Below, piece by piece: positions 9,701 to 54,700 of a stretch of 64,000 nucleotides of DNA. A model generated the notes under the pieces. That model was not told the origin of the DNA. It did not search any database and saw only the letters and a program-made list of their open reading frames with translations. The number at the start of each line of letters is the position of its first letter. The first letter of the stretch is position 1. This DNA comes from Octopus vulgaris (taxonomy: Eukaryota), in assembly GCA_951406725.2 (NCBI GenBank), contig OX597818.1:110918001-110982000 (forward strand). The letters run 5' to 3'. The position numbers and the translations under genes were made by a program.

Positions 9701-12700
9701 ATTGAATCCATCAAACGATTGAGTTTGAATTTCAAATGTAGCTTAAAATAGTATTTGTTTGTTCTTCTGCTCTCAACACTTCTTGATGATAGCAATCTGT
9801 GAAAATATCTCAATTTTAAATTTTAAACTGAAAAAAGGGAGAAATAAATTCATTCATTCACCTAGCCGTCATATCCACCCACTATTTGCTGTCAGGTTAG
9901 AGTATCGCATCTATAGGGTCTAATCAGAAGTGACCATCACTAGACTGCCTGACTGGATTTCCAAGAATGACCAACTGAGACAATATTTTGCTCCACCAAT
10001 TGGCTTGGCTTGAAGAGTCCATCTAGTGATTCTTTCATGCAACATTCTAATCCGGTACCAGAGATGAAACTCTTCAATGGGCAGAAGTAGAAGTTTGCCC
10101 TGGAGAGACTCCCTAGCCTCCAAGCTATGCATCTTGTCAAGTAACATTACTCTAGAGACCTTTTGGTACACTGTGGCATGAAAAGTTGCAGCAGAGGCAG
10201 TAAAAAACTCCAAGACTAAGTCATAAGAACTCTGGGTTTAAGCTGGACTCTGATATTAGGTTGATCAATAAAGTACAAGGTGGTATCAAAAAGTTTCCAG
10301 ACTAGTTCTGTAGCATGCCAACAGATAGTAGTAGAAAGCTGCACGTGCAGTGAGAGCTAGCAGTGACCTTTATGAGTTAGTGTGCAGATTGACATCTCGA
10401 TGTTTACTTTGTAAATTGTGGAATTTGTGTTTTTGTGATCATATGTATATTGTATATTTTTGTCAATGGATAGGAAGTTGGAACAAAGAGCCAATGTTTA
10501 GAGACAAAGAGCCAATGTTTAGATACCTATATCTTTACATTGGTTTTAAATTTTGGCACAAGACCAAGAGAGCTAAGTCAATTACAATAACCCCAGTGGT
10601 CAAATGCTATTTATTCTCTCAACCCCAAAAGGTGAAAAGCAGAGAATTTGAACCCAGAATGTAAAGAAGCACGACATGCCACTAAGCATTATGCTAAAGA
10701 CTCTGCCAGCTTGCCACCTTATATATGTATCTCTATATTGTTATATTTATGCATCACTATTAGACTGGATGAAAAATGCAACTTTTGAAATTGGTAACCA
10801 AGAATCGATATTTTGTTGCGAATTTGTGTTTAAAGAAAGGTGTATGAAAATGCTTGTGATTAAATATTTTTTTCAGGCTTTGAAACGCAATTGAAAATTT
10901 TAAAAATCGCCATTTTTGGTTGAAGTTTGGATCTCATGGATTATAAGTTGTAAGGAATACATATTTCTACATAGCAGAATGCAAAACAGTAAATATAGTA
11001 TTTTTAAGAGGTTGCATACCAAGTTTCAATACAATTGACTAATATCTTGAGGTTTCACATTGACTGTAAAGAGAACAAGAGAGTGAATTTCTCTCCAGTG
11101 CCACTGCAACAGTTATTGTGTGTGGACATACGTCGTACATGTGTGAAGTTTTCTGCTTTGTACCTTGACTTTAGGCCATTGTATTAAAATTAATGATCAT
11201 TTTAAATATAGTGTTGATTACATTTAGTGATGACTCATAAGCCAATAATACATCATGATACTGACTGCCCAATATTTGGTATTCTATGTGATTTAGAGAG
11301 CAAGTTTTGCCAACTTACAAGGATGAACTAAAATGTGCTTTATTTGAATGAGAAAAAGAAAAGAACGTAGTTAACAGAGATCTTTCAATTAAATAAATTG
11401 TCAAAATTGTAGCAGAAAAGATAATTCTTCTTTAGCAAAAGGCATCCAATATTTGTGTTATGACTGAGTCAGTTAAACTTGAAAATCTTGATCTTAAAGT
11501 ACCATGCATTACTAAAATTTGTGAAAAATAGAAAAAATGTGCCATCATTTCAAACAAAGTGTAATGTGTTTATAAACAATGCAACAAAAGATTTGACATT
11601 TCCTGTTTCAAGTGCAACGCCTTTAAAAACTGTAGTTGTAGTAGAGCCAAGTACAGGATCAATGAACAAATTGAAAAATGATCATTGGTGGAATAGATCA
11701 AGCAGTATCTAAACAGTACATGCAGAGCCTAATTAGAAAGAATCAGCCAGATCACAGTCGCCTTTCTGTGTCAGCAAAGGAAAGTTTCAGATTTTCAGCT
11801 TAACTCGCTCAATCATAACACAAGGGATGGATGCATTTTGCCTAAGAAAAATTATCTTTTCTGCTACAATCTTGACAATTTATTTAATTTATTTTAATGA
11901 GTGTGTAATCTAGACCTCATGTAACAGATATATTTAGTGAACTAGTTTAAAAAATGATAAAGAAAACAAAGTCGAGAAGTCTATTTATTTCACACAATTT
12001 TGAAATTTCAAGTACATTGTGGAGCCTAAAGATATAAATATTAGAGCTTGAGATTTTAACACTCTGGTTTTTAAAGGATTTCGCAAAAGAAAATCGATTT
12101 GTAACAAGGAATTTAGAATGGCAAATGAGTTATAAATTGATATTTTGTTCATTATTCAAAATTTCAAATGGGCTGCGGAGCCTCAAGATGTAAATTTAAT
12201 AACTTCAACTTTTAACTTTTTAAAGGAGTTTGCAATAAAAGATATATTCTTGAAAAGATATTTTGAAAATCTGTGTAAAAAGTACCTTTTTGCTCCACTC
12301 TAATTGCTATGTCTTTATTTCAATAAAGTAAAAATTGAACAAAATGTAATAAAAATATTTACTTAGCTCTTTCTTTTTCAATATATGGAAAACGGCACAG
12401 TTCAGTCCAAAAATTTCCTAAGCCCTGCAAATATTCAAAATGAAAGCATATGCTTAGACTTTTATAATAAACTGAATGATTTAACATCTGCAGTTCTATT
12501 TTAAACCATGTAATTGACTCTTCAATCAAACTGGATATTGCCTCACTTCCTGAAGCAATTGATTGTTTTGCTTCTCTACATCCACAGCAACATCAAATTT
12601 CAGATATTTCAAGAACATTGGAATAATTCCAGAACAAATTCTTTCAACCAGCTTAGGACTGTAGGAAAATTAAAGTAATCATTTCTAAACAATGCACAAG

Positions 12701-51700: not shown

Positions 51701-54700
51701 CAATCTTTTAAATATTTTGGTAGAGAACAAGAGAAATCTCAGTCATGACATCTCTAGTTAGAAACCTATCAGAAAGAACAGGTGACTTAGATGAAACTGC
51801 ACCTTGTTACATACTGTGATGTCACAGGTAGGCTAATGATATTGTTTACCTTATTTCTTAAATGAATTATAAGTCTTTAGAAAAATCTTCATAGATAACA
51901 GAATGTTCAAGGTTTTTGCAGCTTTATTTTTAACCCTTTAGGAGATTATTCAGTCAAATGCAATGCTTAATTATCAATATTGTAGATCCAATGTCCTGAT
52001 TCAATCCCAATTCCCAGCACCTTGGAAAAGTGTTTTCTACCATAGTAATTGTTTGACCAATTCCTTGTGAATAAAATTTGGTAGATGGAAACTGTGTAGA
52101 AAACCAGCTGTTGCTTGTACATTGAAGCCTCTGTCTACAGCACAATGTTATCTAAGGAAAAGACAAAGGCCAATACAGCTTCACAGCAGTGTCATCACAA
52201 GCATGGCTGTGAGAAGGGAAAGAGCAGGATGAGATACCACAAGGTATCCAGTCAGGTGTTTTAACAATCCTGGACTGCTACTATTATTATCAATTTCAAA
52301 AAGTGAAAGGTAAAATTAACTTCACTGATATTTGAACTCAGAATGTAGAAAACCAAGACAAATACTGCAAAGCCTTCTATCCGATGCTTGAGTCTCTCTG
52401 CCAATATACTGCACAGTAAATAAATCATATTAACTAACCTCACGGTCTTCCAAGTATTTTTTTGCCAGGTACCTGCAAAAGAAACAAATTTTCATCACAT
52501 CATCACAATCATCATCATTATTTCTACATCAGCTCACAAAAAGAACCATTACAGAACTGTTTATGTTTGTACATTTTATTATTTCAATCTAAATCTAGAA
52601 TTCATTTGAATAGGTCTAATCTCTAGTTTTACTTTTATAAGTGAATCAGGGCAAAATGAAGACAGACCTGGTTGAGAGGACAATCATTTTAACTGACAGA
52701 TCTTGCAGATTTAAACAGGATTATTATATGTAATGGTATATGTCTTTACATGACTTTGTAGTGCAGAAGATTTTAAAGACATAATTTCTTATACATTATA
52801 TATTATTTGTATTAAAATTTCAGATTTGTTTTCAATTTCAGCTTCATAAAAATGAGACACTTTCATCAAAAAGCAATCAAGATTGGGAGATTATTTTATC
52901 TAAAGTTTGATGTCATCATCATCAACATCGTAATCATCATTTAATATCTGTTTTCCATGCCAGCATAGGTTGGATTGTTTGCCCAGAACCAGCAAGGTGG
53001 TGAGCTGCAACAAGCTCCAGTCCCCTGCTTTGGCATGGTTTCTACAGCTGAATGCACTTCCAACCACTTTACAGAGTGCACTGGGTGCTTTTGAAGTGGC
53101 ACCAGCAGAGGTACATCTTACATGGCACCAGGAAAGGGGAATGTTAATTTTAATCAGAGTTTAAAATATTTATTGTTCAATTCATTTCAATGTGAACTGA
53201 GGAAAGAAATGATCTGGAACTGAAAATCCCCTCTTTATTCTGTTTCTCCCCTGTCTCTGTTCTGTGTGTGTATGGAATAGGTTTGAGCCTTTTGTCTTGC
53301 AGTTAAATACATACAAACAAAAATAGTGTATTAAAAGTTGTGCAACCAGGACTTACTGAAGTTGAAATACTGTACAGAGATATTTCATGTTGTCTCATAT
53401 CAACAATGTCATGGCTTCTCTTATTAATTCCTACATTTATATTTCCTTATATCGTTATCATATTTATACATCACAGTCTCCTCATAATTCAAAGTCAAAA
53501 TCAAACTTAAGCAGAATGTTATATATTCACTTACCTGGCTTGTACGACTCCAAAACTCTCTGGATAAACTGCCATTTCCTTTTTAAAATCTTCATACTTC
53601 TAAAAAAAGGTTACAATAAAAGCATTTGTTGTAATTTTATAATAAAAGCAATGATTTGACATTAATAATTCTATTTTGGACTGGTTTCAACTCTTCAATG
53701 AAACAAAACATTACCTGGCTCATAGAAACAGTTAAAAAAAAAGCTAATCCTATTCTTTAAATATGTTAACTTTGAGTAAAGAGCTGAAATTATTGACTGA
53801 TAGGGGATATTACCTAACCTGAGGAATGATGCAGTAAAGGCATTTCATCTTGCACTGTAAACTGATTTTGATATTTCTCTCTTAAAAGAAGATTCTAAAG
53901 ATAGCAGCAAATATCTCCCTGAAATCTTGTAATAAAAAAGGCATGACTGCACAGCTGCAGGGTAAGTCCAAAAGCCCCTATTTGAAAGGAGCAAAGGGTA
54001 CTTCTCCTACCAACCACAAACTCTACATCTGCCTGTCAACAAAATTGTTATATATTGCATTATCAGACATGAAAACATGAAAAGCTATGTTGACCTCAGC
54101 ATGATTTTGAATTGTAATGGTCAACAATGGTGTTATGCTGTCATCCAATCTGCTCAGCTACATCTTCATCAACTATCATCATGCTCATCTGTTTTCCAAG
54201 CTGGCATGGGTTGGACCGTCTGGCAGGAGCTGCTCAGGCTCCATGCCTACTTTTGCATGGTTTCTACAACTGGATGCCCTTTCTAATGCCAACCACTTTA
54301 CAGAGTGTACTGGATGCCTTTCCACAACACCAACTTGTGAGTATAAACATGGTACTAGAACAGGCACTTTTTTTTGTGGTACCAGCACCCATGAACCTCC
54401 AAGATTACAAACATTCAGCTAGAGAAGGATGCTGTGAGTATGCCTGTATGTAAGGACAACAACAACACCTCTACTTAGCTTGGTAAACCACCAGGAGTCC
54501 CCTACCCAGTCATTCCCTCTGTGAGACACAACATCTGAAAATGCAAGGATGTTTGTTGCTTGACCTCAACATCTGAAGGAAAAAAACAAATGGATGGAGA
54601 GGAAATTGTTGATTTCGTCCAAATGCATGAAGGTGAGAGAATTCACACGAAAGTCACCCAAGAAGCAGATGGGGGTGTTAAAGTGAGTGGTATGTAAGAC

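Follow-up and report, generated by a model that had tools for sequence, protein, structure and literature searches.

Apparently homogenised introns and old, moderately selected micro-exons in a probable p47-derived repeat gene of Octopus vulgaris

Exons that are more diverged than their introns are a familiar feature of conotoxin and snake-venom PLA2 genes. In the primate L/M opsin genes, introns have been homogenised by conversion, and exons, including their synonymous sites, are more diverged (PMC3213168, PMC3924837). The present study concerns a stretch of 64,000 nucleotides (nt) of Octopus vulgaris DNA, positions 110918001-110982000 of contig OX597818.1 (the window), which lies entirely inside one minus-strand gene containing an array of alternating micro-exons; positions are those of the window unless the contig is named. 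Exons appear to outrun introns in this gene mostly via conversion and partly through selection. The best overall explanation, to which we assign a probability of about 0.62, is that the gene encodes a p47-derived intracellular array binding variable ligands, shaped by intron exchange and moderate selection.

The gene runs from an ATG at contig position 111185869 to a stop at 110863934 (~322 kb). When the Octopus sinensis protein was mapped back, 94 exons (13 N-terminal, 74 repeat and 7 C-terminal) and 2,064 codons were obtained, with the sole stop terminal and AG/GT at every internal border. Across 424 kb of contig DNA including the window, B and A exons alternate strictly through all 74 repeat exons without a stop. 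Twenty of the 74 fall inside the window; the preliminary description, whose observation is real, placed the feature at 12363..53599, but the array reaches ~240 kb, most of it outside these limits, and the neighbouring p47 gene was missed. Minus-strand splice-signal scans located 10 A exons (65, 62 or 59 nt, phase 0 to 2) interleaved with 10 B exons (each 34 nt, phase 2 to 0) in the window, and self-comparison of the window gave five diverged units. Between 29700 and 45600, five of the seven predicted introns were joined in both X1 and X3, runs from two studies that were taken as RNA by guess, a choice supported by their spliced joints (15 joints listed, with 1131 further joints outside the listing), while the same five introns had a joint depth of 0 in the DNA-type runs X8 and X10. 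RNA contigs connect exons in the predicted order, and joint 35979-39835 corresponds to the B1-A1 junction, originating outside 29700-45600. A search with the window exons matched O. sinensis XP_036358878.1 (P0001, 1,935 residues), which carries the same repeats in identical order, and one Octopus bimaculoides fragment. Because of the 74-exon alternation without a stop, the RNA joints and the repeat order of the O. sinensis protein, the micro-exons are genuine spliced coding exons. The gene is single-copy, genome searches giving one locus, and its five matches among 1.84 billion representatives all come from Octopus or Argonauta hians, with no relative from squid or further taxa within the reach of that search.

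Recounting confirmed that exons are more diverged than adjoining introns, the four hand counts of the preliminary description being correct to within one or two bases. A6 (32573-32509) and A10 (53599-53535) differ at 23/65 nt (previously given as 24) and 15/21 residues with no silent-only codon, beside flanks with 2/99 differences upstream and 4/98 downstream. A3 (12424-12363) and A7 (36019-35958) differ at 18/62 nt and 11/20 residues with one silent-only codon, and their upstream flanks at 9/189 positions (previously about 7). B7 and B9 differ at 11/34 nt beside near-identical blocks (39480-39830 and 52085-52435; 10/350 differences), while the 3/34 changes between B1 and B7 are all replacements, as had been stated, but carry no significance by themselves, the flanks having 7/97 and 2/100 differences. 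Among all paralogous pairs of equal length, the median difference was 0.33-0.44 for exons, 0.07-0.15 for the better flank and 0.18-0.32 for the other flank; the earlier statement that flanking introns are nearly identical holds for some pairs, but usually on one side only. In 13 independent pairs with low flank divergence, exons differed at 137/627 positions (21.9%) and flanks at 82/1898 (4.3%), a comparison biased by having been chosen on flank divergence.

This contrast seems to come mainly from homogenisation of the introns. Conversion sparing the exons, which the preliminary description had placed in brackets as the alternative to selection, accounts for most of it, considering the high synonymous divergence (dS) of the exons and the mosaic flanks. 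Upstream and downstream flanks share a nearest neighbour for only 10 of 66 exons. The check for conversion tracts that had been proposed was largely positive: in flank-only sets, a Sawyer-type test gave p 0.001 in three of four sets and 0.021 in the fourth, values inflated by uneven rates and joined flanks, and a test resembling the pairwise homoplasy index (PHI) gave p <=0.015 in three of four, the exception being the A62 class (p 0.97). The block before A7 occurs in ~17 copies across 200 kb of the gene, 86-96% identical, confined to the locus and in several cases truncated. Because flank neighbours disagree, exchange tests are mostly positive and the truncated blocks are found only at this locus, the introns are unusable as a clock. 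On the upstream side, the 40 nt nearest the exon are slightly more diverged (0.085-0.114 vs ~0.05), with no gradient downstream. A dispersed transposon was considered as the origin of the conserved blocks and ruled out, since 17/17 and 20/20 matches (lower bounds) lie in this locus.

Exons themselves are, as far as their sequences indicate, not entirely spared from exchange. Identical exons lie 68 kb apart and 123 kb apart, B7 being identical to an exon ~123 kb upstream in the gene, and two half-exon chimeras were detected. The flanks of A6 are nearest to those of A10, while its exon is nearest to a repeat 77 kb upstream, and an A8-like sequence occupies the A6 position in O. bimaculoides. It is likely that ectopic exchange homogenises the introns while diverged exons escape, with exons occasionally exchanged and surface codons under moderate positive selection.

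The exons appear to be old, because of their divergence at four-fold sites, their high dS and the closeness of positional orthologues in O. bimaculoides. Four-fold sites between paralogous exons differ by 0.10-0.50 depending on class (with wide intervals), and median dS is 0.38-0.81 vs a non-synonymous divergence (dN) of 0.51-1.10. A pairwise model put the synonymous rate at ~5x the flank rate and rejected equality, although this single-omega model (omega being the dN/dS ratio) may overstate the difference. Nine of 11 O. bimaculoides repeats best match their positional orthologue (58-77% identical, vs a paralogue median of 33-34%), and A3 had separated from A7 by the time that O. bimaculoides split off; the repeat identities thus seem to predate this split.

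Codon tests covered 62 of the 74 exons in five classes, four repeat exons at each end of the array and the rare length classes being left out. Overall omega was 1.16, and twice the log-likelihood difference was 15.8 for M1a/M2a (p 3.6e-4), 17.4 for M7/M8 and 16.5 for M8a/M8, with omega 2.2 at 40-42% of codons and a p of ~2e-4; these values come from our own implementation, applied to short exons with fixed FastTree topologies and no multi-base mutation. The observed 16.0 was not attained in any of 30 null simulations, of which 20 included extreme within-exon recombination and 10 lacked recombination; the highest value was 11.4. With recombination, 2/20 exceeded 5.99, and omega was <=0.95 in all 30, vs 1.16 observed. 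Columns with a posterior >0.9 for omega >1 lie outside the hydrophobic core columns described below. Positive selection therefore appears to be present but moderate: selection itself was detected, as the preliminary description had supposed, but an omega of 2.2 is not the strong diversifying selection that it proposed. It had also held that exon dS as high as dN would speak against positive selection, and the two are indeed close. Compared with O. sinensis, repeats differ at 28/1061 residues and the rest of the protein at 2/579 (7.6 times as often, p 0.0004), although a rate above that of the remaining gene does not by itself show omega >1; the few differences outside the repeats mark the genome as that of a very close Octopus relative. 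Between O. sinensis and O. bimaculoides, p47 has 1/338 differences, whereas the repeats differ by ~39% and the C-terminal part of the repeat protein by 22%. Ten of the 28 replacements fall within 53 residues (A6-B5-A5; p 5.5e-7). At 29700-32600, which holds these exons, DNA contigs differ by 2.3% (X8) and 4.3% (X10), vs 0.5% and 0.8% elsewhere (eight pieces per run), and X1 and X3 both carry the O. sinensis-type first codon of A6. This segment is possibly a deeply diverged haplotype, for which balancing selection, introgression or old conversion are possible sources.

The 2,064-residue product consists of four N-terminal UBA-like segments, ~37 repeats, a fifth UBA-like and a SEP-like segment, and an Ala/Glu/Lys tail. 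Each repeat of 31-33 residues is encoded by one A and one B micro-exon, and two repeat types alternate in a 65-residue higher-order unit. Columns 2, 5, 9, 16, 24, 25 and 29 are hydrophobic in 94-100% of 36 repeats, and many other columns have an entropy of 2.5-3.4 bits; because of the spacing of the hydrophobic columns, each repeat is predicted to form two amphipathic helices. A Pfam scan of the whole protein found only UBA families (UBA_4 33.8 bits, cut-off 21.8; UBA_8 29.3, cut-off 26; both near the protein start) and no NACHT, NB-ARC or ROC-COR. The repeats matched nothing significantly in Pfam, PDB sequences or Atlas, including TPR, ankyrin, LRR and HEAT, the PDB sequence searches returning low-complexity matches only. 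The protein is probably cytosolic or nuclear, because a crude scan, not SignalP, revealed neither a hydrophobic leader nor a membrane segment (19-residue hydropathy at most 0.11 N-terminally and 1.24 overall, in the Ala tail). No Cys-dominated column occurs in the 36 repeats. The earlier proposal of a variable recognition protein is therefore plausible for an intracellular protein, but its analogy with venom, conotoxin or cell-surface molecules is not supported, given the UBA-like start and lack of a leader; a venom peptide and a surface receptor were rejected on these grounds and for want of a membrane segment. A multi-peptide precursor with dibasic sites (K-R-E-A in A4) was also discarded, the motif not being conserved and there being no signal peptide. 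The tail, in the last exon (contig 110864951-110863934), comprises 295 residues (136 Ala, 52 Glu, 39 Lys), with 9/295 differences from O. sinensis, and is ~47 residues long in O. bimaculoides P0004.

When the genome was searched with SEP and UBA_4, a canonical UBA-SEP-UBX gene was detected on the + strand (contig 111212530 to beyond 111239268), in head-to-head orientation to the repeat gene; relatives of this canonical gene are named NSFL1 cofactor p47. The start codons of the two genes are 26.7 kb apart, and a common promoter is possible. In both, the first exon has 35 codons and is followed by a phase-0 intron, and residues 8-44 of the repeat protein are 35% identical to the p47 UBA (E 8e-4). 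The SEP-like segment, as in p47, is interrupted by a phase-0 intron at a distance of five codons ahead of K-N-G and by a phase-2 intron immediately ahead of E-x-P, which makes three intron positions common to the two genes; another SEP gene (C21:23688691-23688849), which we take to be UBXN11-like, shares L-Y-K-N-G but has different intron positions. In Atlas, a search by feature with the SEP-like part yielded no lead that reached 0.9 (NleG and U-box fell below this value), and SEP is preferred to U-box because of the UBA context and the intron positions. The SHP box pattern F.G.G..L had no matches in the gene product and two in p47, and UBX was absent from Pfam scans of the product. It is probable on these features that the repeat gene arose next to p47/NSFL1C as its inverted duplicate, losing the SHP box and UBX and amplifying a helical module. 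SHP box and UBX bind p97 (PMC9941556), and because both are absent the gene is a probable p47 derivative rather than a member of the adaptor family. There is an even chance that the amplified module derives from the UBA exons of the p47 copy: the B and A exon phases are those of the UBA exon and the following exon, and some repeats carry a short D-x-x-R-A-K motif also found in the p47 UBA.

Taken together, the proposed mechanism is as follows. Misaligned units would exchange ectopically, by gene conversion and unequal crossing-over, evening out neutral intron blocks. Exons would escape since selection rejects homogenised repeats, and their mismatch of 30-45% should end conversion tracts; their old synonymous divergence would thereby survive. 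Whole or half exons would move occasionally to create new repeats, and surface codons would additionally be under moderate positive selection. A fixed hydrophobic scaffold with position-specific variable faces could then grip changing foreign or selfish proteins, and the UBA-like domains could link bound targets to the ubiquitin system without p97 binding. A soluble intracellular array of this kind is suggested because a fixed core is combined with position-specific, positively selected surfaces; we advance this function tentatively, at slightly less than even odds. That its targets are pathogen proteins is doubtful, and that they are germline-conflict proteins a little more so. Several results weigh against the p47-derived array. 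Neither Pfam nor hhalign found SEP in the protein, a profile of the SEP-like segment scored -1.7 on p47, inside the shuffle range, and its global alignment with p47 had z 1.3-2.75, another window of the protein scoring equally. Descent of the repeats from UBA lacked significance (the best score, 53, was matched by the top-scoring shuffle), and the Atlas model of the protein is poor (predicted local distance difference test 0.51, predicted template modelling score 0.25). Homogenisation is read from the introns of this genome, and no exon-skipping joint was found among the 15 listed, all being constitutive. The negative PHI-like result and the limits of the Sawyer-type and codon tests given above count in the same direction.

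Other explanations of the exon-intron contrast fare less well. If the introns dated recent duplications, which is the leading interpretation of the preliminary description, point mutation under very strong diversification, in the style of venom genes, would have had to drive the exons apart. The scarcity of silent-only codons in the most divergent pairs (0/6 in A6/A10; in the 13 chosen pairs, 127 same-residue codons with 8 silent changes) and the significant site models agree with this idea, but it is largely refuted, and very unlikely, given the fast synonymous rate and four-fold divergence of the exons, the different relatives of one exon's two flanks and the early separation of A3 and A7. 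Moreover, pairs with equally similar flanks differ in their exons by anywhere from 0 to 35%. Purifying selection on the intron blocks, whether as micro-exon splicing enhancers, as RNA pairing for alternative splicing or as hosted RNAs, deserves equally little credence. The best-conserved blocks do abut micro-exons, remain 86-96% identical along the array and are one-sided according to exon class; however, they extend 300-1000 nt and more, several copies lack the distal part, their ancestry is mosaic, and no Rfam match was obtained, leaving structured RNA unsupported, while the listed joints offer no alternative splicing. An assembly artefact, with collapse (raised in the preliminary description) or polishing as the source of the intron similarity, is barely credible. 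Array exons 29-31, outside the window, closely resemble exons 9-11 and are absent from the O. sinensis model, and could be an assembly duplication. There was, however, no collapse, because 4-14% of positions differ between paralogous blocks, and independent DNA contigs reproduce intron sequence peculiar to single copies (e.g., 36733-37082, with 0/350 differences); in addition, RNA contigs join the exons in order, and the repeats follow the same order in another species.

With respect to function, the repeats could be a loosely constrained spacer or rod in which only the core matters and surfaces drift neutrally, with homogenised introns, exons that escape only because mismatch stops conversion, and no role in recognition. 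An omega near 1, a dS nearly as high as dN, the rapid change of the whole gene (the C-terminal part is 32% identical to Argonauta) and a varying repeat number would all be expected of a spacer. It is nevertheless unlikely, as three likelihood-ratio tests favour omega >1 and survive the recombination simulations, position-specific repeat identity is kept across species, and the replacements relative to O. sinensis are clustered. Alternatively, the repeats could be degenerate UBA units forming a multivalent polyubiquitin platform whose variation tunes chain preference, a notion suggested by the true UBA-like domains flanking the array and by the exon phases noted above and the D-x-x-R-A-K motif that some repeats share with the p47 UBA. 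This is quite unlikely: the UBA similarity of the repeats does not rise above shuffles, and ubiquitin is invariant, so that positive selection on repeat surfaces would be left unexplained. The p47-derived array with intron exchange and moderate selection is accordingly preferred to these accounts.

All micro-exons of the window are on the minus strand and, except where stated, rest on the splice scans. In the order of the gene, they are B10 (56524..56557; present in O. sinensis P0001), A10 (53535..53599, 65 nt, recounted), B9 (52439..52472, recounted), A9 (49534..49592, 59 nt), B8 (43840..43873; RNA joint 42266-43840), A8 (42202..42266, 65 nt) and B7 (39835..39868), the last two with RNA joints on both sides. 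They continue with A7 (35958..36019, 62 nt; RNA joints on both sides), B6 (33487..33520; RNA joints), A6 (32509..32573, 65 nt; with contig and nearest-neighbour evidence), and B5 (31745..31778) and A5 (30026..30087, 62 nt), both within the cluster of O. sinensis differences. Farther along lie B4 (20360..20393), A4 (17785..17849, 65 nt), B3 (15891..15924), A3 (12363..12424, 62 nt, recounted), B2 (7825..7858, outside the coordinates first described), A2 (5972..6036, 65 nt), B1 (3608..3641, recounted) and A1 (700..758, 59 nt; the letters of the B1-A1 junction occur in run X3). Apparently homogenised minus-strand intron blocks follow B7 (39401..39834, compared above with the block after B9) and precede A7 (36020..36800, one of the ~17 copies) and A3 (12425..13200, from block comparison). 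Within the 9.6-kb A5-B4 intron, an inverted 2-kb pair (21052-23115 and 24068-26129), 95% identical, is by eye presumably retrotransposon-like. We also take 40850-41980 and ~16800-17560 to be fragments of mariner-like transposases; an open frame of 361 codons at 46400-47482 presumably belongs to a retroelement. Read depth indicates that the introns contain many copies of common short repeats. Elsewhere in the gene, four repeats (129 residues; contig 111047232-111014915) are missing from the O. sinensis model, and three of their exons are near copies of exons ~68-76 kb upstream; this may be a copy-number change, an annotation gap or an assembly duplication. O. bimaculoides P0003 is without one other repeat. 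In Argonauta hians the gene is broken into several partial models (P0005-P0007) in which both repeat types seem present, with weak scores, and the alternating repeat unit may predate the Octopus-Argonauta split.

To our knowledge, few variable recognition molecules have been identified in cephalopods, and the gene is for this reason a specific candidate for a role in immunity inside cells or in germline conflict. It is unnamed in the literature searched, with supplements (which could list gene ids) and most subscription papers outside that scope, and the sources consulted have it as uncharacterised; the evolutionary pattern is known, while the protein, the repeat and the origin appear to be undescribed. 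A near-invariant housekeeping adaptor stands here beside a 2,000-residue, fast-evolving probable derivative with a repeat type absent from Pfam, and ~37 replicate exon-intron units in one gene allow selection to be tested against conversion, a question also raised for venom genes. Unlike those genes, the octopus gene encodes a product that is not secreted and has no conserved cysteine frame, a single large protein of many repeats in place of a family of short toxins.

The L/M opsins (PMC3213168, PMC3924837) show the same pattern: exon synonymous divergence exceeds intron divergence, introns carry exchange tracts, and exon orthologues are closer than paralogues (here 9/11). However, the opsins are two genes, whereas the octopus has ~37 repeats in one gene, with positive selection, exon exchange and change in repeat number in addition. 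With p47/NSFL1C (PMC9941556), the gene shares a UBA-like N-terminus with the same first exon, the SEP-like introns and an adjoining position on the opposite strand, but it differs in its five UBA-like segments, ~37 inserted repeats, long Ala/Glu/Lys tail and far faster evolution. The brown-algal ROCO-LRR and NB-ARC-TPR candidate immune receptors (PMC3341825) are likewise intracellular, with repeated small exons, shuffling, selected repeat surfaces and an inferred function; in contrast, the octopus gene has no ROC-COR, NB-ARC, LRR or TPR match, is single-copy, splits each repeat over two exons and alternates strictly, no spare intronic exons having been noticed. Fungal NLRs (PMC13449251) also have an array of repeats that is subject to exchange and to diversifying, possibly also balancing, selection, but their coding repeats are highly similar, whereas in the octopus gene only the introns are, and nucleotide-binding and death domains are absent. 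By analogy, the octopus gene may be likened to both groups of repeat receptors, although it belongs to neither. Doubtful as it still is, one could picture an octopod cytosolic variable receptor made from a p97 adaptor, a new repeat scaffold with ~37 binding faces diversified by point mutation and re-dealt by exon-sized conversion, homogenised introns as the driving homology, balanced haplotypes and UBA-like routing to the ubiquitin system; if true, animals would in this receptor have an equivalent of NLR/ROCO-style repeat receptors that was assembled independently from components of quality control.

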